A stretch of DNA of 64,000 nucleotides from Haliangium sp. (GTDB lineage Bacteria; Myxococcota_A; Polyangia; Haliangiales; Haliangiaceae): NCBI RefSeq assembly GCF_050304635.1, contig NZ_JBNLDX010000012.1; one strand, 5' to 3'. The translations under genes were made by a program, and so were the position numbers. Below, piece after piece: positions 11,710 to 64,000 of this stretch (positions are counted from its first letter, which is position 1; each line of letters begins with the position of its first letter). A model generated the notes under the pieces. It did not search any database and was not told the DNA's origin. It worked only from the letters and a program-made list of their open reading frames with translations.

Positions 11710-13152
11710 TCAGGCCGGGCGCCGGCCCGGGCCCACACGCGCCACCGGCAGACGCGAGCGGGTGCGCGCCACCAGCATCAAGGTGACCAGCGCGACCGCG
11801 AGCTCCAGGGCCCACAGCAGCCCGCCGGCCATGCTGGGAAGGTGCCCGCCGAGCGCGTCCACGGCCCACGCTGCGGCGTCGGCGAGCCCCATGAGCGCGC
11901 ACCAACTCGCCCACCGCGGTCCCCGTGGTCGGGCACCCACCAGCGCGGCCCCGGCCCACAGCGCGAGCCCGGCGAGCGCGGCCACGCGCCAGGGCACGGC
12001 GTCCATCGCTGCCCACGGCTCCAGCGGGCCATGGGCGGCCGCCGCCGGCAGCCCGGCCAGCCACTGCCCGAGCGCGATCGCGCCCAAACCGAGCAGCACC
12101 CAGCCCAGGGCCTGCAGGCCGCTGTCGGGTCCACAGCCGCCGGCGCCGCCGCTCTCCTCGGCGAGGTAGGCCTCGAAGCGGCGCTCGCTGTACAGTCGCA
12201 GCAGGATGGTCGGCCACGAGCGCAGGGCCATGCCGGCCCCGGCCGTGGTCAGGGCGGCCGCGGCGATGTCGCCGGTGGCGGCCAGAACCGCGATCCCGAG
12301 GATTACGGCGGCCGCGCGCGCGCTCGCCCGCGCCACCGCGCAGTAGCGCACGCCAGGGGCCATTCGGGTGTCGGCGTCGTGGCCGCGGAGGGCGCCGAGC
12401 CCGGCCCGGATGTGGATCACCGACCGGGCCAGGAGCAGGGCGGCCGCGGCGATGCCGGCCCAACGGGCCAGGGCGACGCTGTCGAGCGACCAGGCCCCGG
12501 GGCCGAGCGGCCCTGTGCAGGTCAGGCCGTGCAGCATTGCCATGCCCTGGGGCGCGGCCACGTCCCGGGTGCCGTCACCGAGGGTCAACACCGCCATGAA
12601 CACGGCCGCCCCGGCCGCGCCGACGCCGCCGAGCACGGCCATGAGCACGGCCGCGCCGGCCAAGTCTCGGTCCGCGCTCACCGGGCGGCTCGGCATGAGC
12701 GCGCGCGCGGGTTGCTGCGCGCGCACGCGCGGGAGCGACACATACACCAGCAAGACCGCGGGCCAGGCCATGAGCAGCATCGCCACCCGGGCCAGGGTGG
12801 TGGCGTCGAGGTGCTCGCGCAGCAGCAGCACCATGACCGCGCTGTGACACGCTGCCACCCATACATAGGTGGCGATGGCGCGTCTGGGGCTGGTGTCGGT
12901 CGCGTACAGCACGACGTTGCCGGCGGCGCGCTGGAAGGCCGCCCGGACCCCGTACAGCAGGGCGAAGAAGAACACCACTTGGCTGCCGTGGCCGCCCTGG
13001 GCCGCGGCCGGCACCGCTGCCAGCAGCGCCACGACGATCCCGGTTCCGCCGCCGAGCTGCATCAGCAAGCCCAGGCTGCCGAGACCGAAAGCCGCCGGCT
13101 CGCTCGCGCCGACGGCTGGGCGCTGTCGTGCTTGGCTCGCTGATGGTGTCAT
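11710..13152 (-). CDS. Polytopic membrane protein (possible transporter), function unknown
   Basis: ORF 11710..13176(-) trimmed to Met 13152. About 12 hydrophobic helices. No catalytic motif recognised. Confidence 0.45.
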   Translation of the reverse strand: MTPSASQARQRPAVGASEPAAFGLGSLGLLMQLGGGTGIVVALLAAVPAAAQGGHGSQVVFFFALLYGVRAAFQRAAGNVVLYATDTSPRRAIATYVWVAACHSAVMVLLLREHLDATTLARVAMLLMAWPAVLLVYVSLPRVRAQQPARALMPSRPVSADRDLAGAAVLMAVLGGVGAAGAAVFMAVLTLGDGTRDVAAPQGMAMLHGLTCTGPLGPGAWSLDSVALARWAGIAAAALLLARSVIHIRAGLGALRGHDADTRMAPGVRYCAVARASARAAAVILGIAVLAATGDIAAAALTTAGAGMALRSWPTILLRLYSERRFEAYLAEESGGAGGCGPDSGLQALGWVLLGLGAIALGQWLAGLPAAAAHGPLEPWAAMDAVPWRVAALAGLALWAGAALVGARPRGPRWASWCALMGLADAAAWAVDALGGHLPSMAGGLLWALELAVALVTLMLVARTRSRLPVARVGPGRRPA

Positions 13153-13277
13153 GGCCCGGTGACGATAGCGTAACACGAGGTACCGTGGTTACGAGATCAA
13201 AACCCGCGAAGGCTGTGGCCCATCGCGGCGGGATTCGCTAGCCTCCCGCAATGGCTGTGGAATCAACGCTGACGTCG

Positions 13278-14864
13278 ATGTCTGTTCGGATGCGCGGGCG
13301 CCGCCGCCTGGGCCTGGGCCTGGTGGCCTTGAGCGCGTGTGCGATCGCGTGGGCGTGGACGCCGGCGCCGGCCCAGGCGCGGGAGCCGCGCGTGTTCGAC
13401 CCGGCCCAGACGTATCTCGTCCCGCTCGGAGACGGTCCCCGACGGGGGCCGGACGACGCCCTGGTCACGATCGTCGAGTTTTCGGACTTCATCTGTCCGT
13501 ACTGCGGGCGGGTGCAAGAGACCCTGGCCGACCTCGAGCGGCTGTTTCCGGGCCAGATCCGGCGAGTGTATCGCCACAACCCGCTCGACCTCGACGACGC
13601 CGGTCTGGCCGCGGAGGCGTCCATGGCGGCGGGGGCGCAGGGCGCGTTCTGGCCCATGCACGAGCTGATCTTCGCGGCCGGCGGCCACCCCGGGCGAGCC
13701 CAGGTCGAGGACTTTGCGGCCGCGCTGGGGCTGGATGTGGGTCGGTTTCGGCGCGACCTGGACCAGCACCGACACCGCCCGGCGATCGAGGCCGACGCGG
13801 CGTCGGCCGAGCACCTGGGCGTGTACAGCACGCCCAGCTTCTTCATCAACGGTCGGCCCGTGGTCGGGGCGATGCCGCTGGAGGTGTTCGCGCGCATCGT
13901 CGAGGAGGAGCTGGCGCGGGCGCGGGCCTTGGTGGCCCAGGGCGTGGCCGCGGCCGAGGTCTATGACGCCGTGACCGCGGGTGGGCTGGCGCAGGGGGCT
14001 CGGCCCGAGGACGCGCCGGACGAGTTCGACCCTCGCTACCGCCCGACCGCGCTCGATTCCGCCTCGTTGTACGAAGTCGGTGACGGCTTGCCCGGGCACG
14101 CCCTGGGGCCGGCGGACGCGCCGCTCACGGTGGTGGTGTTTTCGGACTTCGAGTGTCCGTACTGCGCTCGGCTCCACCCGACCTTGCAGGAGCTGCGCGC
14201 GGTCTATGGGGACCGGGTGCGGGTCGTGCTGCGGCACCTGCCGCTGTCGTTCCACCCCCGGGCCCAGCTCGCGGCCGAGGCGGCGGTGGCGGCGGCGGCC
14301 CAGGGGCGACTATGGGCGTTTTACGACCGCGTGTTCGCCGAGCCGGAGGCGCTGTCGCGGGCCGACCTGGAGCGCCACGCCCGCGCCGCGGGCCTGGACA
14401 TGGACCGGTTCCGGGCCGCGCTCGACGACCGGCGCTACTTCGAGCAGGTGGCGGCCGACGCGGCCGCGGGCAAGGCGCTGGGGGTGCGGGGGACGCCGAC
14501 GATGTTCGTCAACGGCACTCCGATCCCGGGCGCGGCACCCTTCGATGTGCTCGATCGGCACGTGTTCCGGCCCAAGATGGCCGAGGCCGAGGCTTTGATC
14601 GCGGCCGGGGTGGCGCCGGCGGCGGTGTATCGCGCGCTGCTCGAACAGGTGGGCGGCGACGACGTCGCGGGGCGGGAGCGGCCCGTGGTCGGGGCCGCGG
14701 TCGGGGCCGCCGCGGGGGATCCGGGCACGGGTCGTGCGGCCCTGCTGCAGGCCTGTCGAGCCCGGGACGACGCCCGCGCGCAGCGGCTGTATCGCCAGAT
14801 GGGCACGCCGGCGCCGCCAGGAGTGCGGGTGCAGTGCAGGCCGTTTGGGGTGGATCTTCCTTGA
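13278..14864 (+). CDS. Secreted DsbA-family thiol:disulfide oxidoreductase with two tandem thioredoxin-fold domains
   Basis: Signal peptide RRRLGLGLVALSACAIAWA. Two CPYC active sites (FSDFICPYCGR and FSDFECPYCAR), each followed by a DsbA-like helical insertion (FWPMHELIF / LWAFYDRVF). Confidence 0.8.
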   Translation: MSVRMRGRRRLGLGLVALSACAIAWAWTPAPAQAREPRVFDPAQTYLVPLGDGPRRGPDDALVTIVEFSDFICPYCGRVQETLADLERLFPGQIRRVYRHNPLDLDDAGLAAEASMAAGAQGAFWPMHELIFAAGGHPGRAQVEDFAAALGLDVGRFRRDLDQHRHRPAIEADAASAEHLGVYSTPSFFINGRPVVGAMPLEVFARIVEEELARARALVAQGVAAAEVYDAVTAGGLAQGARPEDAPDEFDPRYRPTALDSASLYEVGDGLPGHALGPADAPLTVVVFSDFECPYCARLHPTLQELRAVYGDRVRVVLRHLPLSFHPRAQLAAEAAVAAAAQGRLWAFYDRVFAEPEALSRADLERHARAAGLDMDRFRAALDDRRYFEQVAADAAAGKALGVRGTPTMFVNGTPIPGAAPFDVLDRHVFRPKMAEAEALIAAGVAPAAVYRALLEQVGGDDVAGRERPVVGAAVGAAAGDPGTGRAALLQACRARDDARAQRLYRQMGTPAPPGVRVQCRPFGVDLP

Positions 14865-14893
14865 GCGGGCCTTGAGCGGGCCTTGAGCGGGCC
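14861..14893. repeat. Perfect 11-bp x3 tandem repeat (ttgagcgggcc) at the 3' end of the DsbA gene
   Basis: ttgagcgggcc ttgagcgggcc ttgagcgggcc read directly. The first copy overlaps the TGA stop of the DsbA-like gene. Confidence 0.7.
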
Positions 14894-14998
14894 CGAATTG
14901 GTTTGGCCTGAGCTGGTCGGGTCTGTCCTGGTCTGACCTGATCTGGCCTCGGTGGGTCGGCGCGCACTGCGGGCGCACGACTTCCTCGTGTGGACATC

Positions 14999-15045
14999 GA
15001 ACTGCGCGCGAGCGCGGGTGGGAACTGCGCGCGAGCACGGGTGGC
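14999..15045. repeat. Direct repeat gaactgcgcgcgagc(g/a)cgggtgg x2 in the leader of the large sensor gene
   Basis: Two 23-bp copies, 22/23 identical, separated by 1 bp, about 300 bp upstream of the start at 15346. Candidate paired operator sites. Confidence 0.5.
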
Positions 15046-15345
15046 GCGCGCGGTACCGATTTCGGTTGTCGTTTTTGCACGGACGGTCGAGAATGGTTTC
15101 ATCGCGTCCAGATTCCTTGGCGGCGCGCGACCGCGATCCGTACCACCTCGCAGTGATTGACGTGCCTCGCTGGTCACTCGGCTCGTCTCGGCGGACCGTC
15201 TGTCCTGCCATGAGGCGAGCGTACGAGTCTTCACTGGCGGGCGCGGCCATCGCGCTCGTTCGGCGTGGGGACGAGGTCGTCGGCGCGAATACGGTCGCTC
15301 GCGGACGCAGCGAAATGGGTCCACTCAGAGGGAGAACACACTCAT

Positions 15346-18300
15346 ATGTTGGATATCGGGGATGTCTGCGCTGATCGCTATCGGCTGACCCGCCGGCTCT
15401 CCACGGCCTGGTCGGGCATCGAGCGGTTCTTGGCCGAGGACATGGGTCAGGGCGCCCCGGTCATCCTCCAGGCGGTCTCGGCCGAGCGCGTCCCCCACGC
15501 CACCAGGCTCCGGGTCGCGGACGAGGCCGTCATCGTCTCGGAGGTCGCCGATGGCGCCTTCCTCCCCGTGCTCGGGTCGGGGCTGCACGGAGATGTGCTC
15601 TATCAAGTAACCCCGAGGCTCGACGGCGACCTGCTCAGCGCGCGCATCGACGCCCAGCCGCTGTCGGTCGCGGACACGGTGGCGTTGGCCACGCGGGCCA
15701 CCGCCGCGCTCGACCTCGCCCATCGCAACGGCCTCGTCCACCGCAGCATCACGCCCTTCGATCTGCACATCGCCTCTGACGACCGGCTCTATCCGCTCGG
15801 CTTCGGCTGCGTCCGGGCGCCCGACCTCGAGACCGATGACCGCGCCATGTTGGTACAGCGGGCCCGCTACGCCTCGCCCGAGGAGGCCGGGATGGTCCAC
15901 GCCAGCGTCGACGGCCGGGCCGACCTGTACTCGCTCGGTGTCACCGTCTACCAGTGCGTGAGCGGGGAGGTGCCGTTCTTGGGCGACAACGTGGGCGAGC
16001 TGCTGCGCAATCACCTGACCGCAACCCCGGCGCCTTTACGCGAGCGCCGCGGCGAGGTCCCGCGGGTGCTCGACGAGCTGGTCCAGCGGCTGTTGCACAA
16101 GGACCCCGAGCAGCGATATCAGTCTGCGCAGGCGTTGCTCGTCGATCTCGAGGAGATCGGGCGTCGGCTCGCCCGCGGCGAAGCGGAGCCCGAGTTGACC
16201 CTGGGCCTGGCCGACCGCCGGCTGGCGCTCACCCAGCCCAGCTTCATCGGCCGGGCCAAGGAGCTCGCCTGCATCGAGACCCAGTTCGAGGCGGCGCGGG
16301 CCGGCAAGGGGGATCTCGTGCTCATCGAAGCCCCCTCCGGAGGAGGCAAGTCACGCTTGCTCGAAGAGGTCATGCTGCGCGCCACCCAACGGGGGCTGTG
16401 GTTGCTGCGTGGCCAAGGGGTGGCCGAAGGCGGTCTGCCCTACGAGGCCTTGGAGGGGTTGACGCGTGAGGTGGTGCGCGCGGGCCAAGACGAGCCGACG
16501 CTGGCCGCGCGCCTGCGCGAGGCCCTCGAAGAGCACCTCCAGGCCAGCTACGAGGTGTTCCCCGGCCTGCGCTCGCTCTTGGGCGAGGTCCCCGAGCGCG
16601 ACTTCGGCGTCGCCGTCGGTGCCCAGGAGCGCACCCAACGCGCGCTCACCGAGTACGTCTGTGCGCTGGGCACGGCCGAGCGGCCGGCCGTGGTCGTGAT
16701 CGACGACGCACAGTGGGCCGACACCAGCACCCTCGAGACCGTGGCCTCGTGGCGGACCCGGGTCGCGCGCGGGTCCGGTGCGTCGAGCCACACCCTGGTG
16801 CTCTTGGCCTTCCGGTCCGACGAGGGCGACGCCGTGCGCGCGCTCGAGACCGACACCCACCTGGTCCTGCCGCCCCTGCGACAGCCCGAGGTGCGCGCGT
16901 TGCTCGAGTCCATGGCCGGCGCGTTGCCCGACGATATCGCGACCACGGTGATCCGCTTGGCCGACGGCAGCCCGTTCTTGGCCGCCTCACTGCTGCGCGG
17001 GCTGGTCGAGGTCGGGGCTCTGCAGCACCAGGGCGCTACGTGGGTGGTCGAGTCGTCGGCGCTGGACGACATGCGCTCCTCGGCCGACGGCGCGGTGATG
17101 TTGCAGCGTCGGCTCACCCACCTGGCCGAGGAGACCCTCGCGGTGCTCGAGATCGGGGCCGTGCTGGGCAGGCACTTCGCCGCCCACATCGTGGCCGAGC
17201 TCAGCCGACGTGAGCGCCGCCTGGTCAACCAGACCCTGGCCGAGGCGTGCCGGCAGCAGCTCCTGTGGGCCAACGCCGACCTCACCACCTACACCTTCGT
17301 GCACGACAAGCTGCGCGAGGCGGTACTCGACCGGCTGTCCCCGGACCAGCAGCGCGCCCTCCATGTGGCCGCCGCCGCCGAGTTGGAGACCCAGGTGCCG
17401 GCCTCGGCCAGCGAGGTCGCCTACCACTACGACGCCGGCGGGGAGCCGGTGCGGGCATTGCCGTTTGCCATCGAGGCCGCGGAGGACGCCCGCCGCAGGC
17501 ACGCGCTGTCCGTGGCCGAGTCTCTGTATCGGGTCGCCTTGCGCGGCGAGGAGGCCGCCGACCAGGCCATGGCGCGGCGGATCCAGCTCGGGCTCGCCGA
17601 CATCCTGCTCCTCCAGGGCCGCTTCGACGAGGCCGAAGGGCACCTGGAGGCCGGGCGCCAGCTCGCCGAGAGCCACGAGCAGCGAGTAGAGGTCGAGAGC
17701 CAGTTCGGCAAGCACTTCCACCAGCGCTGCAACTTCCCCAAGGCGGTCGAGCACCTCGAGCGGAGCTTGGTCATGCGCGGGGTGTCGCTGCCCCGGCGCC
17801 CGACCTGGGTCGCGCTGCGTTTGCTGAAGGAGGTGGGGGTGCAGGTCCTGCACCGCGTCTTCCCGCGCTGGCTCCGGGCCCGTGGTCCGCTCGACCGGGC
17901 CGAGCACGACCTGGGCGTCGCGCTCGACCTGGTCCGCCTGAGCTACACGTGGTTGTTCTTGGGCAACCCCAAGGCCAGCCTGTGGGCGGTGCTGCGCGCC
18001 GTCAACCAGGCCGAGCGCTACCTTCCCGGCGCTACCCTGGGCGAGGCCTATGGGTTCATCACCTTCGCGGGCTCGATGGGGCTCGGCTACGATGCGGTCG
18101 CCTACTACGGCGAGGGCGCGCTGGACTACTCGCGCCGCTTTGGCAACCTGTTCCAGGAGGGGCTGTCGCACGCCCGCGTGGGCAGCGCCATGTTCTGGAT
18201 GGCCCGTTGGGACGAGAGCCTTCACCACGCCGAGATCGCGGTGCGCATGTTCGAGCGCGCCGGCGAGGCCTTCGAAGGCGGCTCCGCGCTGTACGTGGCC

Positions 18301-58083: not shown

Positions 58084-59283
58084 TCACTCGTCCGCGTCGG
58101 CGAAGCCGTAGCGCTCCGGGTGTCGCAGCGGGGGCAGCACTGCGCGGCGGAGCAGCACGGTGCGAGTGGCCCAGACGTCGCTGAACACCCGGTAGGCGAG
58201 CGCGGTCTGATCCAGGTAGGCGACCCCGGCCGAGCCTCCGGTGCCGGTGCGGCGGCCGATGACGCGCTCGACCATACGAGCGTGACGCTGGCGGAAGATC
58301 GTAAACGCCTGCTCCAGGGCCACGATGGCGTCGATGACCTCGCGCGGCCAGGCCAGCAGCGGCAGCTCGCGGTAACTCTCGATGAAGACCAAGGCCGCGC
58401 GCACGCGCGAGCGATAGGCACGCCGGGACTCATCGTCGCCGACCTCCACATCGCGGGCTTCGAGCCACGACCGCGCCGCCGCGAGCTCGCCCTGATAGCG
58501 CTTGTCGAGCCGCTCCCGGTCTTGCTCAGTGAGCGCGTTGTCCATGGCGCGGGTCTTGATCTCGTTGATCTCGTCCCGCTGGGCGGCCAAGAACGCGTCG
58601 ATGAAGGCGGTGACGCGCGCGGCGTCATCTGGGCCGTCCGGCACCGAGCCGTCGATGGGGGTTCGATGCAGCCAGGCCTCGATGGCCTCGCGCAGGCTCG
58701 GGCGATCGTGGAGTCGGCGCTCGACCCGGCGCGACGCCGGCGAGCCGGAGCCATCCGGGTAGCGCAGCGCCTGCTGATAGGTCTCGTGCCCCAAGGGCAG
58801 GCGCTCGGCCTCGCCCAGGCCCATGATGATCTCGATCTCGCGCATCTGGGCCGACTGGAACCCACTGGCCGGGCTGAGCTTGTCGCGGAACGCCAGGTAG
58901 TCACGGGTGGTCAAGGTCTCCATCAGCGCGAAGTGCCCGGCGGCCTGCTGGAACAGCAGCGCGGCCCGTCGGATGCCGCGCACGGCCGTGGCCAGTGACT
59001 GCTCGCGGACGTGCTCCTGGGCGAACAGATCGCGCACCGACACCAGCTCGCGAATGGCCAGCTTGAACCAAAGCTCGTCGATCTGGTGCACGACGATGAA
59101 CATGATCTCATCGTTCGACAGCGCCGCCTCGTCGTCCTCCAGCCCAGTCTGCAGAGCCAGGAGCTCTTCCACCTTGATGTAGTCCCAATAGGTCGTGGGT
59201 CCGCTTGCCATCGTCCGCACGATGCCATTGGCGCTGACGGCCGGCAAGGGGATCGAGGGATCGCTGGGCAGGGGCTGGTTCAT
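58084..59283 (-). CDS. kynA: Tryptophan 2,3-dioxygenase
   Basis: TYWDYIKVEELLALQ, SNDEIMFIVVHQIDELWFKLAIREL, GTGGSAGVAYL. Full TDO signature. Start chosen at MNQPLPSD (59283; alternative 59211). The Cys-rich N-terminal extension of the track ORF is rejected as non-coding. Confidence 0.85.
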   Translation of the reverse strand: MNQPLPSDPSIPLPAVSANGIVRTMASGPTTYWDYIKVEELLALQTGLEDDEAALSNDEIMFIVVHQIDELWFKLAIRELVSVRDLFAQEHVREQSLATAVRGIRRAALLFQQAAGHFALMETLTTRDYLAFRDKLSPASGFQSAQMREIEIIMGLGEAERLPLGHETYQQALRYPDGSGSPASRRVERRLHDRPSLREAIEAWLHRTPIDGSVPDGPDDAARVTAFIDAFLAAQRDEINEIKTRAMDNALTEQDRERLDKRYQGELAAARSWLEARDVEVGDDESRRAYRSRVRAALVFIESYRELPLLAWPREVIDAIVALEQAFTIFRQRHARMVERVIGRRTGTGGSAGVAYLDQTALAYRVFSDVWATRTVLLRRAVLPPLRHPERYGFADADE

Positions 59284-59428
59284 TTCGGAGCAAGTGCACC
59301 AACAAGACACACGTCCGGCGCCGCGCATGGGCTGGTAGCCGTGGCAAATCCGGCACTTGCCGCCGGCACGGTGCTTGCTCTTGGCCTGGAGACCGGTGAG
59401 CAGCAAGTCCACAAGGAGAGCAAGGCCC
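59284..59428. promoter_or_regulatory. Divergent intergenic region between kynA (-) and the MVP-like gene (+)
   Basis: Strong AAGGAGAG Shine-Dalgarno 8 nt before ATG 59429. Imperfect inverted repeat gcaagtgcacc ... ggcacttgcc/ggtgcttgc. Confidence 0.4.
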
Positions 59429-61462
59429 ATGGCAGAACGAGACATTCGCGAACGCGACATCCTGGTTGCCCCCAACGAGTACGCCTACGTGCAGGACCTC
59501 ACCAAGGGAGACATCGTCCTCTACGTCGGCCCCACCAAGATCAGCCTGTCCAACACCGAGCGCATGATCATCCTGCGCGACGGCCGCTTCGTGCCCGTGC
59601 GCGGCGACGAGGCCGGGCTGGGGGTACACAAGTTCGTCGCGGCCTCATCATCGCAGTACATCATCCTCGAGAACCCGCCCCAGGACCCCGACGACAAGCC
59701 GGTCAAGGGCGCAAACTCGGCCATCCCGCTCCGCTTCGGGCGCAAGGTCGTCGTGCCCGGCCCGGCCGAGTTCCCGCTCTGGCCCGGGCAGCGGGCCCAG
59801 GTCATCGACGGCCACGAGCTGCGCCTGGACCAGTACCTCGTCGTCCGTGTGTACGACGATATGGGCGACGGCGAGCCGATCGGCACCGAGCACATCATCT
59901 GCGGCACTGACGTGAGCTTCTACATCCCGCCCAGCGGCCTGGAGGTGGTGCCCAACCGCAACGGCAGCTACGTGCGCCGGGCCTGGCGTATGGAGCGCAA
60001 CAAGGGCCTGCACCTGCGCGTGCGCGCGCCCTTCGAGGTCGGCCCCGCCGCGCAGGTGCCCGAGGGCCGATACCTGGCCGGGCAGGACATCTTCCTGCGC
60101 GACCGCGAGGGCATGTTTTTCCCCTCCGACAACCTGGACGTCGTGGGCGAGGTGGCTCCGATCCCGCTGGCCGAAAACGAGGCCATCTACGCGCGCGAGT
60201 TGGGCACGGGCAAGCTCACCACCGTCGAGGGTCCGGTGAACTACCTGGTCGATCCCACCCGCGAGGAACTGGTCACGCGTCGGCTCGACGAGCGCCGGGC
60301 GGTGCTGTTCCGGCTCGACACCGACAGCCGCGACCCCAACCGGGCGTGGTCGATCTACGTGCCCCCGAGCACAGCGGTGATGATCACGGCCAAGAACAAG
60401 CGCGAGGTGGTGAGCGGGCCCCAGACCCGCATCCTGCACTACGACGAGGAGCTCGAGGTTCTGACCTTATCGACCGGGCGACCGAAGAGCGACGAGGAGC
60501 TCTTGCCCACCTGCTTCTTGCAGGTACAGGGCAACAAGGTGTCGGACCTGGTCCGGGTCAAGACCTCCGACCACGTCGGGCTCGAGATCCTGCTGTCGTA
60601 TCGAGTGTCGTTCGTGGGCGACTCCGAGCGCTGGTTCAACGTCAAGGACTATGTCGGCCTGCTATGCGACCACCTCGGTTCGATCATCCGCGCGGCCGCG
60701 CGGACGAGTTCGATCGAGACCTTCCACGGCACCAGCACTGACATCTTGCGCACCGCCATCCTGGGCGCGCGCGGCGACGACGGCGAGCGCGAGGGGCGGC
60801 ACTTCAAGGAGAACGGGATGTGGGTCTACGACGTCGAGGTGCTCGACGTGCGCATCCTGGACCAGGACGTCGAGCGCATGCTGCAGGAGGCCCAGCGCAT
60901 GGCGATCGTCTCGGCGATCACGCGCAGGCAGGAGGAGCTGCGACTGGGCGACGAGAACCTCAAGGAGTCGGTCAACCGAGAGATCTACGGCGCCCAGATG
61001 GAGACCCTGGCCAAGGCTGCCGAGCACGAGGCCGTGAGCCGCACCGTGGAGCTGGCGCGGATCGGGACCATCATCGAGCGCGACCGCCTGGACAAGATCG
61101 GCCGGGCCGAGCACGAGGCTGAGGCCGACGCGATCCGCAGCCGGGCTCGGCTCGAGATCGCCGACCGCGAGGCCGGGTTGGCGCGGGAGGCCCTGGCCGC
61201 GCGCTCGGCGGCCTTTCGCGAGCAGATGGAGGCGCTGCAGCCCGAGCTCATCGCGACCCTCAAGGGCCTGGCTGGGCAGCAGCTCGCCGGCGCTTTGTCC
61301 AAGAACCTGTCGCCGCTGGCCATCCTCGGCGGCGAGAGCGTGGCCGAGGTGGCCGCGCGCTTGCTCGACCGTCTGCCCCTGGGCTCCAAGTCGGGCCCGG
61401 CGGCCGACATCCAAGGCATCCTTGGCCTGGTGCCGTCGCCGGACCAGGGCGAGTCGGCGTAG
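59429..61462 (+). CDS. Major vault protein (MVP) homolog: N-terminal MVP repeats + SPFH/band-7-like shoulder domain + coiled-coil cap helix + disordered tail
   Basis: 677 aa. ILVAPNEYAYVQDLTKGDIVLYVGPTKISLSNTERMI aligns to eukaryotic MVP [37 protein letters not shown]. Further matches PLAENEAIYARELGTGKLTTVEGP (vs [21 protein letters not shown]), VLTLSTGRPK (vs VLSLSAGRPK), DHVGLEILLSYRVSF, FHGTSTDILRTAILG, ENGMWVYDVEVLDVRILDQ, then a long Ala/Glu/Arg coiled coil. Confidence 0.8.
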   Translation: MAERDIRERDILVAPNEYAYVQDLTKGDIVLYVGPTKISLSNTERMIILRDGRFVPVRGDEAGLGVHKFVAASSSQYIILENPPQDPDDKPVKGANSAIPLRFGRKVVVPGPAEFPLWPGQRAQVIDGHELRLDQYLVVRVYDDMGDGEPIGTEHIICGTDVSFYIPPSGLEVVPNRNGSYVRRAWRMERNKGLHLRVRAPFEVGPAAQVPEGRYLAGQDIFLRDREGMFFPSDNLDVVGEVAPIPLAENEAIYARELGTGKLTTVEGPVNYLVDPTREELVTRRLDERRAVLFRLDTDSRDPNRAWSIYVPPSTAVMITAKNKREVVSGPQTRILHYDEELEVLTLSTGRPKSDEELLPTCFLQVQGNKVSDLVRVKTSDHVGLEILLSYRVSFVGDSERWFNVKDYVGLLCDHLGSIIRAAARTSSIETFHGTSTDILRTAILGARGDDGEREGRHFKENGMWVYDVEVLDVRILDQDVERMLQEAQRMAIVSAITRRQEELRLGDENLKESVNREIYGAQMETLAKAAEHEAVSRTVELARIGTIIERDRLDKIGRAEHEAEADAIRSRARLEIADREAGLAREALAARSAAFREQMEALQPELIATLKGLAGQQLAGALSKNLSPLAILGGESVAEVAARLLDRLPLGSKSGPAADIQGILGLVPSPDQGESA

Positions 61463-61492
61463 ACGCCTGCTCGGCCCGGGGCTGGCGCGCGC
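61244..61492. repeat. Copy 1 of a ~250-bp segmental duplication (MVP 3' coding end + 30 bp 3' flank)
   Basis: gagctcatcgcgaccctcaagggcctggctgggcagcagc...gagtcggcgtagacgcctgctcggcccggggctggcgcgcgcg. About 90% identical to 61969-62219. Confidence 0.8.
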
Positions 61493-61968
61493 GTGGGCGG
61501 GTAGCCCTCTGGTCCAGGGTGGGCTCTCGTCTATTCGTGGTCGACCATGGACCGTGCGACGCCCGAGTTCCGGTTGCTGTGCGCACGAGTCGGCATGGCA
61601 GCGGGGGCAAATTCGGGCTGGCACACGCGTGTACGGGATTCGATCGTCGCCGGTTCGATGCTTGCTGGGCTGGACCGGCCCAGACGAGCCCACGGCCCTA
61701 CCGGCGGACGACTCGCACGAACGCCTATCTCTCCCTCCGGTCAACGGCTCTCTCCCCCATGGCTGCCGGCGTTCACCTCGTCTCGACCTTGTCCTGGCAT
61801 CCGACTCGTCTCTGTACTCCTGCCCATCGCGGCATCGTCTCGGCCCTCCGTCCGATCTGGGTTGGTCGGAGCAGACAACGACGCCGCCTTCGGGCCGTGG
61901 GCTCGCCCGGGCCTGTGCCGTCCTCGCCTCTGCCCAGATAGGCTCTTCGCTCGGTGGGCTCTGCAGCA

Positions 61969-62219
61969 CGAGCTCATCGCGCCCCGCAAGGGCTTGGCCG
62001 GGCAGCAGCGTGCCGGCGCCTTGTCCAAGGATCTGTCGCCACTGGCCATCCTCGGCGGCGAGAGCGTGGCCGAGGTGGCCGCACGCTTGCTGGAACGCCT
62101 CCCCCTTGGACCCAAGTCCGGCCCGGCGGCCGACATCCAAGGCATCCTTGGCCTGGTGCCGTCGTCGGACCAGGGTGAGTCGGCGCAGCCGCCTGGTCGT
62201 CCCGGGGCTGGAGCGCGCG
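61969..62219 (+). pseudogene. Copy 2 of the duplication: orphan fragment encoding the last ~74 aa of the MVP-like protein (stop TAG->CAG), embedded in non-coding-looking low-GC sequence
   Basis: Encodes LIAPRKGLAGQQRAGALSKDLSPLAILGGESVAEVAARLLERLPLGPKSGPAADIQGILGLVPSSDQGESAQ inside track ORF 61547..62359, whose upstream 140 aa have no protein-like character. Confidence 0.45.
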
Positions 62220-62503
62220 GCCGACGCGGCGACGGCGTGCGGCAACTTCGGGCCAGTGAAAGCACTCACACCCTCGGAGCTCGCGTTGAGTTGTGGCTGG
62301 ATGCCGCGCTGCGTCACGAAGGTTTCGACACGTGTGTCAGCTTGGACACAGGCGCTTGAGCGATGTAACCCCCAACTGCAACAAAAGGAGCGGCCGCTCT
62401 TCCAGAGTATCTCAGGTGCCTATCTGACGGGGGTGAGAGCGATTCAGTCAGCAGTGGAACGACCGCCGCAGGTAGTTCCGCTAGCGAGATTGTCGGAGGC
62501 GGT

Positions 62504-63898
62504 GTGTATGATGCAACCGGGATGGCATTCGAGAAAGCACCTCGTCTATTCCGCGACCCAGTACACTTGCAGCTTCGCTACGAGCGGGTCGAAGACGAAC
62601 GGCACATCCCTTCACCAGCATTCGGTGACAAGCGCTTCGGCTGGGTGATGCAGCGGCTTATCGACACCCCAGTCTTCCAGAGGCTACGGCACATCCGTCA
62701 GAACGGGTTGACCAATTTAGTGTTCCATGGCGCCGAGCACTCACGTTTCAGTCACTCGATGGGTGTGGCCTATCTGGCCGGCGAGATGTACGATCGCATC
62801 TGCCGCAACATGGGTGAAGAGCCCGATGACGAGACCCGGCTGGCGACATGTGCGGCAGGACTGCTGCACGACATCGGACACGGTCCCTTCTCGCATACTC
62901 TCGAGGAGGCTCTCGATGTTCTAGGGATCGAGTTCGCTCACGAAGCGATGACCTTGCGTATCATCAGAGAGTCGGTTGTCGCCGAGACTCTGGGCCATGT
63001 CGATCAGACCTTTCCCGAACGCGTCGCCGAGTATATTAGTAAGAAGGTAAAGAAACCACATTGGAGTCACAAATTAGTGTCGAGTCAGCTCGATGCAGAT
63101 CGGCTCGATTATCTGCTGCGCGATGCAGCGGCATGCGGACTTCGCGGCCATACTTACGATTTAGCTCGTCTTTTGGATATGCTGCGGCATGTGGATGGAC
63201 AATTGGTCGGTGTGGATCGCAAGGGGTTGGAAACCGTCGAGGGATATTTGGTCGCTTTGGATCAAATGTATCGAGCCATCTACTTCCATCACACCGTGCG
63301 GGCTGCGAGCGTGCTTCTGACCTCCGTCCTTCGTCGTGCCGTCATGCTGGCAAGCAATGGAGACAAAGATGTATTCTCAACGCGAGACCGACGTCATCCA
63401 TTGAAGCGATTTTTCGACACAGGTGGACAGTGCGACCTTGAGACATATTCCCACTTGGGCGAATTCCACGTCTGGGTCCTCGTTGACGAATGGAGAGGGC
63501 ACCCGGACCCGATCCTTTCAGATCTTTCTCGGCGACTCTACGAGCGCCGTCTACCAAAGACAATACAGTTACCGGCTAAGCCCAAGCAGTCATTAGAGCT
63601 GATAGCCAAAGCTCGTGATCTCACCTGTAAGCGCATCGCCCATGTTGATGCCACATTGGTTGACTTCTACGTCGCCGTAGATGAGGCCGAGCGAACCAGC
63701 TACAAGCTGTATGACTGGCGAGAGGAGGAAAAGCCGGACGAGTCTATCTACATCTGTGAACGTAACGGCAAGAGCTGGCCTATTCACGCTTATGGTGAGA
63801 GCAAGATTATTAATGCGCTGAAGGATACCCGCTACGTCTCACGGCTGATGTTCCCGTATGAGATTCGGGACGATATGCAAGCAGGAGCACTACGATGA
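62504..63898 (+). CDS. HD-domain phosphohydrolase of the dGTPase/SAMHD1-like (COG1078) dNTP triphosphohydrolase family
   Basis: GTG start with GGAGG Shine-Dalgarno. HSRFSHSMGVAYLA, AAGLLHDIGHGPFSH, QLDADRLDYLLRDAAACGL. About 52% GC vs ~70% host background. Confidence 0.8.
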   Translation: MYDATGMAFEKAPRLFRDPVHLQLRYERVEDERHIPSPAFGDKRFGWVMQRLIDTPVFQRLRHIRQNGLTNLVFHGAEHSRFSHSMGVAYLAGEMYDRICRNMGEEPDDETRLATCAAGLLHDIGHGPFSHTLEEALDVLGIEFAHEAMTLRIIRESVVAETLGHVDQTFPERVAEYISKKVKKPHWSHKLVSSQLDADRLDYLLRDAAACGLRGHTYDLARLLDMLRHVDGQLVGVDRKGLETVEGYLVALDQMYRAIYFHHTVRAASVLLTSVLRRAVMLASNGDKDVFSTRDRRHPLKRFFDTGGQCDLETYSHLGEFHVWVLVDEWRGHPDPILSDLSRRLYERRLPKTIQLPAKPKQSLELIAKARDLTCKRIAHVDATLVDFYVAVDEAERTSYKLYDWREEEKPDESIYICERNGKSWPIHAYGESKIINALKDTRYVSRLMFPYEIRDDMQAGALR

Positions 63899-64000
63899 GT
63901 ATGTCGAGAGCAATGACTACGACGCAGGGGCTGCTCGCGCTCATTGCAGCGAACGGTGGTTGTATCGAACAGCGCATCAAAATGCAGAAGGAAGCCTACA
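63896..64000 (+). CDS. Start of an uncharacterised gene translationally coupled to the HD phosphohydrolase (runs off window)
   Basis: ATG 63896 overlaps the TGA of the HD gene (ATGA), preceded by AGGAG at -8. Open frame MSMSRAMTTTQGLLALIAANGGCIEQRIKMQKEAY to the window end. Same low GC as the HD gene. Confidence 0.4.

Follow-up and report, generated by a model that had tools for sequence, protein, structure and literature searches.

What is a compact, low-GC gene pair doing at the end of an otherwise GC-rich stretch of myxobacterial DNA? The stretch is 64,000 nt of Haliangium sp. sequence (contig NZ_JBNLDX010000012.1), referred to in full as the window. At its 3' end lie a gene for an HD-domain deoxynucleoside triphosphate (dNTP) triphosphohydrolase, or dNTPase, and the beginning of an overlapping partner gene. 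A first inspection of the letters (the sequence-only reading) had proposed a horizontally acquired defence module that acts by nucleotide depletion. We find that this two-gene operon was almost certainly acquired horizontally, and that it joins a SAMHD1-type dNTPase to a protein that very probably belongs to the YwgA family, whose fold is that of the C-terminal domain of the antitoxin DarG. We regard the chances as evenly balanced that the pair is a mobile nucleotide-depletion module, with the dNTPase controlled by its DarG-like binding partner. The features of the islet are as follows.

62250-62503, + strand: low-GC 5' leader of the islet (GC 0.57-0.61 from 62250, against 0.70-0.78 before it)
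62504-63898, + strand: gene for a SAMHD1-like (EF1143/YwfO, COG1078) HD dNTP triphosphohydrolase, 464 amino acids (aa), GTG start
63882-63886, + strand: AGGAG ribosome-binding site of the second gene, within the 3' end of the HD gene and 8 nt before ATG 63895
63895-64000, + strand: first 35 codons of the partner gene (YwgA family, very probably), cut by the window end; translation MSMSRAMTTTQGLLALIAANGGCIEQRIKMQKEAY

The HD gene encodes a protein of the SAMHD1-like dNTPase family

The HD open reading frame (ORF) is not a chance ORF: it has 7808 database homologues, its relatives reach 59% identity, and it matches a Haliangium sp. protein at 100% (NCBI product WP_428269329.1, 458 aa, which uses an alternative ATG at 62522). 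All the dNTPase motifs quoted in the sequence-only reading could be located in the protein, with AEHSRFSHS at residues 77-85, LLHDIGHGPFSHTLEE at 120-135 and SSQLDADRLDYLLRDA at 193-208. The Pfam models HD (41.2 bits) and HD_assoc_2 (PF19276; 33.8 bits, cut-off 23.1) both scored above cut-off; HD_assoc_2 stands for the C-lobe in a fold of catalytic N-lobe plus C-lobe that Dgt-like enzymes do not have. Among solved structures, the best sequence match was EF1143 of Enterococcus faecalis (2o6i; expect value (E) 1.9e-55, residues 48-424), followed by BT4208 (2q14), Aquifex 2hek and then ~25 SAMHD1 entries near 1e-21. An AF2 model of the protein (predicted local distance difference test (pLDDT) score 85.5) was compared with known folds by Foldseek. 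It matched EF1143 (3irh) over the full length, with a template modelling (TM) score of 0.80 across 458 columns at 32% identity; 2q14 (TM 0.73) and human SAMHD1 (TM 0.66) scored lower.

A published scheme divides these enzymes into two families, SAMHD1-like COG1078 and Dgt-like COG0232, and assigns roles to SAMHD1 residues (PMC7854603). Models of Dgt and of anti-phage dGTPases scored 15-44 bits, over ~100 N-terminal residues only (~49-156), against NCBIfam cut-offs of 152-511. TIGR01353 reached 38.8 bits (cut-off 152.35) and NF041026 30.1 (cut-off 400); the PADLOC dGTPase family, run for comparison, gave a weak 43.6 bits, again at the N-terminus alone. The structures 2dqb and 9p8w (Sp-dGTPase) matched with E of 0.004-0.007 (9p8w, 0.007), and no Dgt-like chain appeared in the top 50 Foldseek fold matches of the HD model. 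Because the Dgt models match the HD core only, whereas the fold of EF1143 matches over the full length, we conclude that the protein is SAMHD1-like, and we rejected membership in the Dgt and anti-phage dGTPase families. The earlier description "SAMHD1/dGTPase-like" therefore holds in its first half, for a SAMHD1-type enzyme with an intact active site, and fails in its second; the grouping with housekeeping dgt, which would have spoken against a defence role, was not observed.

Functional residues were assigned from a sequence alignment with EF1143, for which residue roles and a guanine site at the subunit interface have been described (PMC3190883), and their invariance was judged in 28 homologues.

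Metal ligands: H84, H122, D123 and D199, aligned to EF1143 H66, H110-D111 and D183; invariant
Catalytic dyad and helper histidine: E134/H146 and H126, aligned to EF1143 E122/H129 and H114; invariant
Deoxyribose recognition: Q66, H79, R81, D207, Y256 and Y260, aligned to EF1143 Q48, H61, R63, D191, Y239 and Y243; invariant or nearly so
Guanine-specific allosteric site: D54, Q59, R62, F82, R348 and K352, aligned to EF1143 N36, Q41, R44, F64, R326 and K330; invariant or nearly so

Residues D137/Q142/R145/R451 of the SAMHD1 A1 site correspond to D54/Q59/R62/R348 of the HD protein. Since the catalytic, deoxyribose and allosteric residues are all kept, a nucleotide-activated dNTP triphosphohydrolase is strongly predicted. 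The protein very probably has dNTPase activity, and its residues predict an enzyme of the tetramer type, activated by nucleotides, that splits a dNTP into deoxynucleoside and triphosphate.

A second NCBI assembly of the organism gives a different C-terminus for the HD protein (...PYEIVTKQAIRCEGEQGS, against ...PYEIRDDMQAGALR in the window; ~63860-63898; P0121, P0123). We favour the window version because the family consensus EIRD agrees with it. A 5-nt indel is probable in the second assembly, and it would abolish the ATGA coupling of the two genes as well.

The partner is very probably a YwgA-family protein related to the DarG C-terminal domain

The start codon of the second gene (ATG, 63895-63897) overlaps the HD stop codon (TGA, 63896-63898). 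This ATGA overlap, which the sequence-only reading had taken as a sign of coupling, can be read directly from the DNA and is accompanied by the gene's own AGGAG. The 35-residue fragment is 41-55% identical to the N-termini of the genes that follow HD in loci L004, L002 and L001. Its invariant residues are L14, A19, G22, R27, Q31, K32 and E33, which include an R..QKE motif. The motifs of the family read R-x-R-x-QKE...GPYSR.LS...ELAAT; residues 1-35 hold the first of these, and the remainder falls beyond base 64000.

In close relatives (HD proteins 46-59% identical), the gene directly after HD lies on the same strand and encodes 174-183 aa, and JGI labels its family "uncharacterized protein YwgA". 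The family comprises 2689 clusters at 50% identity (E <= 1e-3), almost all of them stand-alone proteins of 165-190 aa. No natural HD-YwgA fusion was found among the best 150 YwgA representatives, and the partner homologues gave no Pfam match. Two antitoxin models did match YwgA: the PADLOC DarG model at positions 164-311 (E 4e-9), and NCBIfam antitoxin_DarG at positions 176-309 (E 1e-6). The AF2 model of a YwgA homologue (P0124; pLDDT 94.5) consists of a winged helix and a helical bundle. Its top Foldseek match was 7yk3, the DarG chain of a DarT-DarG complex (probability 1.0), and the DarG C-terminal domain was its sole full-length structural match; the N-terminal half has a winged helix like that of MarR/PadR regulators. 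In DarTG, this C-terminal domain sequesters DarT by direct binding (PMC7003065).

Homologues thus name the gene that the sequence-only reading had left unidentified, and they are YwgA or DarG-C-terminal-like proteins rather than the ordinary metabolic enzymes that it had allowed for. With high confidence, we place the window partner in this YwgA/DarG-C-terminal family. Two further readings of YwgA, that it mimics DNA by being acidic or binds DNA by being basic, were considered and set aside, as the isoelectric points of the family (median 6.4, range 4.9-9.6; near-neutral charge) are uninformative. Rare longer members of the family, P0288 (364 aa) and P0257 (249 aa), carry ~75-170 extra C-terminal residues, and the connections of YwgA might be learned from these extra domains.

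The islet is compositionally foreign

GC content over the 1.7-kb 3' end of the window (62300-64000) is 0.550, against 0.707 for positions 1-62200. Of 605 other 1700-nt segments across the rest of the window, none fell under 0.639 (mean 0.707, standard deviation 0.026), which places the islet ~6 standard deviations low. Along the profile, GC drops from ~0.70 to 0.52-0.59; at third codon positions it is 0.60 in the HD gene and 0.87-0.93 in the two upstream neighbour genes. These values bear out the earlier suggestion of horizontal acquisition. The fall from 0.71 to 0.55 is likewise real, but it does not begin exactly at the gene pair, as had been stated: the break lies at ~62250-62300, ~200-250 nt 5' of the HD ORF start.

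The leader between the break and the HD gene presumably holds the promoter region of the operon. Our searches found no sigma-70 consensus promoter or terminator in 61400-64000, no tRNA or Rfam structured-RNA integration site at the islet border, and no conserved element, operator or palindrome across the upstream regions of nine pairs. The idea that YwgA is an autorepressor was dropped on this last result.

HD and YwgA genes travel together

To assess how general the arrangement is, we compared related loci. YwgA lay directly after HD, on the same strand, in 8/8 close relatives with downstream sequence; these were L001, L002, L004, L005 and L006, from a hidden Markov model (HMM) scan of 161 loci, together with L162, L163 and L164. 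The start/stop overlap of the two genes was present in the window and in L004. YwgA also adjoins HD in ten scattered distant relatives, but in the same scan it was not adjacent in most distant COG1078 genes, nor in the giant-virus homologues. Across 19 loci, the divergence of HD correlated with that of YwgA (Mantel r 0.79; 0/5000 permutations as high). This correlation indicates that the two genes have been inherited and transferred together.

The pair had a lower GC content than its flanks in 9/9 related loci measured (differences of -0.02 to -0.20); in Mangrovicella, for example, the values were 0.47 and 0.67. Flanking genes differ at every locus, from which we conclude that the locus is not conserved among relatives. 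A pair kept in place at normal GC, the pattern that would have undercut the proposal of a foreign module, is therefore not what the relatives display.

A pattern scan and tblastn of viral contigs and phage genomes found no close YwgA. Three INPHARED phage records labelled UNVERIFIED_ORG, OR846587, OR846731 and OR844990 (L167-L169; Enterococcus, Listeria and Staphylococcus), look like host chromosomal contigs and not phages; they contain a host-type SAMHD1-like gene, with YwgA not adjacent.

Related pairs occur in defence islands and integrative elements

Sorangium sp. So ce1036 has the pair within a bacteriophage exclusion (BREX) locus, with PglX on one side, BrxC/BrxB/BrxE on the other and a transposase near by. 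A Kofleriaceae metagenome-assembled genome has the pair after a cluster of DUF499, LmuB-like SMC and type II methylase genes (Lamassu/MADS-like), a cluster that itself includes another DarG-C-terminal-like protein. In Microvirga rosea the pair is surrounded by Vsr, SNF2, Dcm, IetA-like ATPase and PD-Lambda-5_A-like genes. Another genome carries it in an integrative element that also encodes PrimPol, ParA and an excisionase-like helix-turn-helix protein, adjoining a PDC-M30A-like gene. An IMG/VR provirus (L088, 10001-11975) has an HD-YwgA pair of 31% identity in a low-GC islet (0.52, against 0.62-0.70), abutting two tyrosine-integrase genes and a RecD2-like helicase (12465-15838). Because close relatives sit in BREX and other defence islands and in integrative elements, we consider nucleotide-depletion defence a reasonable candidate function. 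In all, 5 of ~10 distinct pair loci had a defence or integrative-element context, an uncontrolled count from a small sample.

In L002 and L003 (4142-4798), a 219-aa protein is encoded within a DUF499/LmuB-like SMC/type II methylase (mad2/mad3-like) cluster. It matches the C-terminal half of DarG (PADLOC, E 1.6e-4) and the YwgA HMM (23 bits), and on this ground YwgA/DarG-C-terminal-like modules seem to recur in other defence operons.

Comparison with known nucleotide-depletion and toxin-antitoxin systems

The nearest characterised relatives, EF1143 (2O6I/3IRH/4LRL) and B. subtilis YwfO, share with the window enzyme the family, the full-length fold, the metal site, the dyad, and the deoxyribose and dGTP allosteric sites. 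The order of a SAMHD1-like gene followed by ywgA is found in Bacillaceae as well, whereas no YwgA adjoins EF1143. The Firmicutes genes lie in the chromosome at host GC; the window clade (46-59% identity) differs in forming low-GC islets in defence islands and mobile elements. Human SAMHD1 has a homologous catalytic core (E ~1e-21; TM 0.66) in which the A1 guanine residues are kept, and its antiviral depletion of dNTPs is the function proposed for the window enzyme. The latter is bacterial and lacks the SAM domain, and its control would lie with a separate protein partner rather than with phosphorylation or Vpx-type degradation.

Two bacterial defence systems provide functional parallels. Sp-dGTPase (Tal et al. 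2022; NF041026) is also an HD-superfamily triphosphohydrolase, defends by depleting a dNTP, and adjoins restriction-modification and other defence genes; unlike the window enzyme, it is Dgt-like (COG0232) and forms a single-gene system without a partner. Clover offers the precedent of a two-gene operon: its dNTPase effector, CloA, is toxic when on its own, and the neighbouring gene's product restrains it (PMC12265719). CloA is an octameric relative of Sp-dGTPase, and CloB is a Pol-beta-type nucleotidyltransferase that makes the inhibitory nucleotide p3diT. Membership in Clover was rejected, as the window partner's family has no Pfam hit and folds as a winged helix with a helical bundle, not as a nucleotidyltransferase, and no nucleotidyltransferase gene was present at any related locus. 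With a non-enzymatic winged-helix/helical protein in place of CloB, restraint here would be by protein binding. PDB entry 9mr6, which we had considered as a CloA structure, is a fungal SAMHD1.

DarTG supplies the model for such binding. DarG's C-terminal domain is homologous to the partner in sequence and in full-length fold, and both systems place the effector before the binder. They differ in the effector, since DarT is an ADP-ribosyltransferase and the upstream gene here is an HD dNTPase at every locus. They differ also in DarG's N-terminal macrodomain, which is not part of the partner: the 164-190 aa of YwgA proteins match only ~164-311 of the 329 positions of the DarG model.

A proposed mechanism

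These parallels suggest a toxin-antitoxin-like build, with the effector first and a DarG-like binder second, as in darT-darG. In the proposed mechanism, YwgA would bind the dNTPase and hold it in check or gate it. Phage infection, or some other trigger, would remove the restraint, and the released dNTPase would then collapse the dNTP pool and block replication of the invader's DNA. From the homologies and contexts above we infer the physical HD-YwgA binding, its inhibitory direction, the trigger and the anti-phage outcome alike. An immune or toxin-antitoxin-like role of the pair seems to us to have about even prospects. Direct inhibitory binding of HD by YwgA is a more tentative proposal, which we hold at somewhat below even; the indirect evidence for it is the homology to the DarG C-terminal domain, the translational coupling and the co-divergence of the two genes. 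The broadest version, that HD-YwgA pairs constitute a widespread, unrecognised immune or toxin-antitoxin system in which a SAMHD1-family dNTPase, as the direct equivalent in bacteria of the human restriction factor, is held by a stand-alone DarG-domain homologue and released on infection, we likewise regard as possible but less probable than its contrary.

Several observations weigh against this mechanism. In the literature covered, full-text searches returned no description of, or experiment on, the HD-YwgA pair, and PADLOC v2 contains no model for it; in that collection HD weakly matches dGTPase, and the partner matches DarG and PDC-M19A only. Ordinary neighbours flank roughly half of the related loci (the window, L001, L004 and L006). 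In Priestia megaterium, a homologous pair (HD 34% identity; YwgA hhalign probability 98.75%) has host GC and lies within the ywd-ywh core region, which is conserved. From the systematic nomenclature of the genes we infer that this is the B. subtilis ywfO-ywgA locus, and a core Bacillaceae pair points to housekeeping control of dNTPs. Nor is a partner required for control: the homologues of Listeria and S. aureus and EF1143 itself have no YwgA, and in vitro EF1143 has activity and regulates itself through dGTP. Given the MarR/PadR-like winged helix in its N-terminal half, DNA binding by YwgA is equally plausible. Finally, the window holds only 35 codons of the partner, whose fold is taken from the homologues with 41-55% identical N-termini.

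Alternative explanations

The main rival is housekeeping control of nucleotide pools, in which the islet would be a laterally spread version of ywfO-ywgA with no role in immunity, the dNTPase would trim dNTPs, be it during stationary phase, sporulation, development or the like, and YwgA would act as a winged-helix transcription factor or an accessory regulator. We consider this unlikely, though the least unlikely of the alternatives. It accounts readily for the core locus of Bacillaceae and for the winged-helix domain of YwgA; it fits less well with the window clade, where the pair has a foreign composition in every case, never occupies a conserved locus, and turns up repeatedly in defence islands or mobile elements. 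A regulatory YwgA also sits poorly with the upstream regions of the nine pairs, with their lack of a conserved operator or palindrome, and with the fact that its sole full-length structural relative is a protein-sequestering antitoxin domain and no regulator.

A pure addiction module, distinctly less probable, would be a type II-like toxin-antitoxin pair (dNTPase toxin, DarG-C-terminal-like antitoxin) that kills post-segregationally or stabilises its island and confers no phage resistance. Gene order and partner homology do match darT-darG, the islet is a compact two-gene unit without mobility genes of its own, and pairs occur in integrative elements. However, a place inside BREX or beside restriction-modification-like genes is found more typically with defence cargo, and the core Bacillaceae pair speaks against pure selfishness. 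Many toxin-antitoxin pairs, DarTG included, are defence systems, so this explanation overlaps with the mechanism that we propose. The least probable alternative, to which we give very little weight, is that the HD protein acts in vivo on another substrate, such as modified or non-canonical nucleotides, ribonucleoside triphosphates, or nucleic acid at the allosteric site, with YwgA targeting it to DNA. For YwfO, a sanitising role as a pyrophosphohydrolase of modified nucleotides has been put forward (PMC4993169), and the YwgA winged helix would suit such targeting. Against this, the deoxyribose residues and the His/Glu dyad of EF1143 are all kept in the HD protein, and its full-length fold matches EF1143 bound to dGTP/dATP.

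The upstream neighbourhood

Both upstream landmarks mentioned in the sequence-only reading, a duplication and a vault-protein gene, are present beside the islet.

59357-61462, + strand: bacterial major-vault-protein (MVP)-like gene (MVP shoulder, Vault_3), directly upstream of the pair
61957-62219, no strand assigned: duplicate of the vault gene's 3' end (second copy, decayed), its stop changed from TAG to CAG and its frame broken

The duplication is a direct repeat, D1 (61231-61493 and 61957-62219; 263 nt, 89% identity), that spans the last ~75 codons of the vault gene, its stop and ~30 nt downstream. The second copy delimits the foreign segment on its left, with GC falling 30-80 nt past the end of the copy; because this copy ends just before the low-GC islet, it may be an insertion scar. 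The spacer between the copies (61494-61956, 463 nt) has host-like GC and contains an imperfect inverted repeat (61667-61698 and 61892-61923).

At locus L004 (4575-6756), the genes directly upstream of the pair encode a 621-aa Band_7/SPFH protein and a 107-aa zinc-ribbon protein. We examined a functional link between the pair and the vault gene and rejected it: the vault and L004 SPFH proteins are dissimilar (BLASTP E 0.35) and both genes have host GC, so that these neighbours are probably a coincidence.

Further upstream, a tryptophan 2,3-dioxygenase gene (58084-59475, - strand) diverges from the vault gene, and the two ORFs as listed overlap by 119 nt. For both, the true start probably lies downstream of the TTG given in the list, because the Pfam match begins at residue 84 of the dioxygenase and a MAERD start occurs within the vault ORF.

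Significance

Nucleotide depletion is well established as a strategy against viruses. For bacteria, the only such systems listed in reviews from 2026 are dGTPase, dCTP deaminase and Clover, and one of these reviews notes that SAMHD1-like proteins acting against mobile elements may remain unidentified in bacteria (PMC13276650). The enzyme alone is an added member of a known family; it is the combination of effector and partner that is new, as a candidate. With its relatives, the pair provides a specific candidate that is simple to clone, with two genes in ~1.9 kb, in which the enzyme belongs to the family of human SAMHD1 and the partner ties it to the antitoxin of DarTG.

Should the proposed mechanism be correct, a lethal dNTPase would be kept safe by protein sequestration, and SAMHD1-type antiviral dNTP depletion with control at the protein level would exist in bacteria. 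It would also give a function to the uncharacterised YwgA family and to B. subtilis ywfO-ywgA. The DarG C-terminal/YwgA fold would then be an antitoxin module open to reuse with effectors unrelated to one another, among them ADP-ribosyltransferase and dNTPase. Were the mechanism to prove wrong, the pair would remain a clear case of a mobile dNTP-pool regulator.

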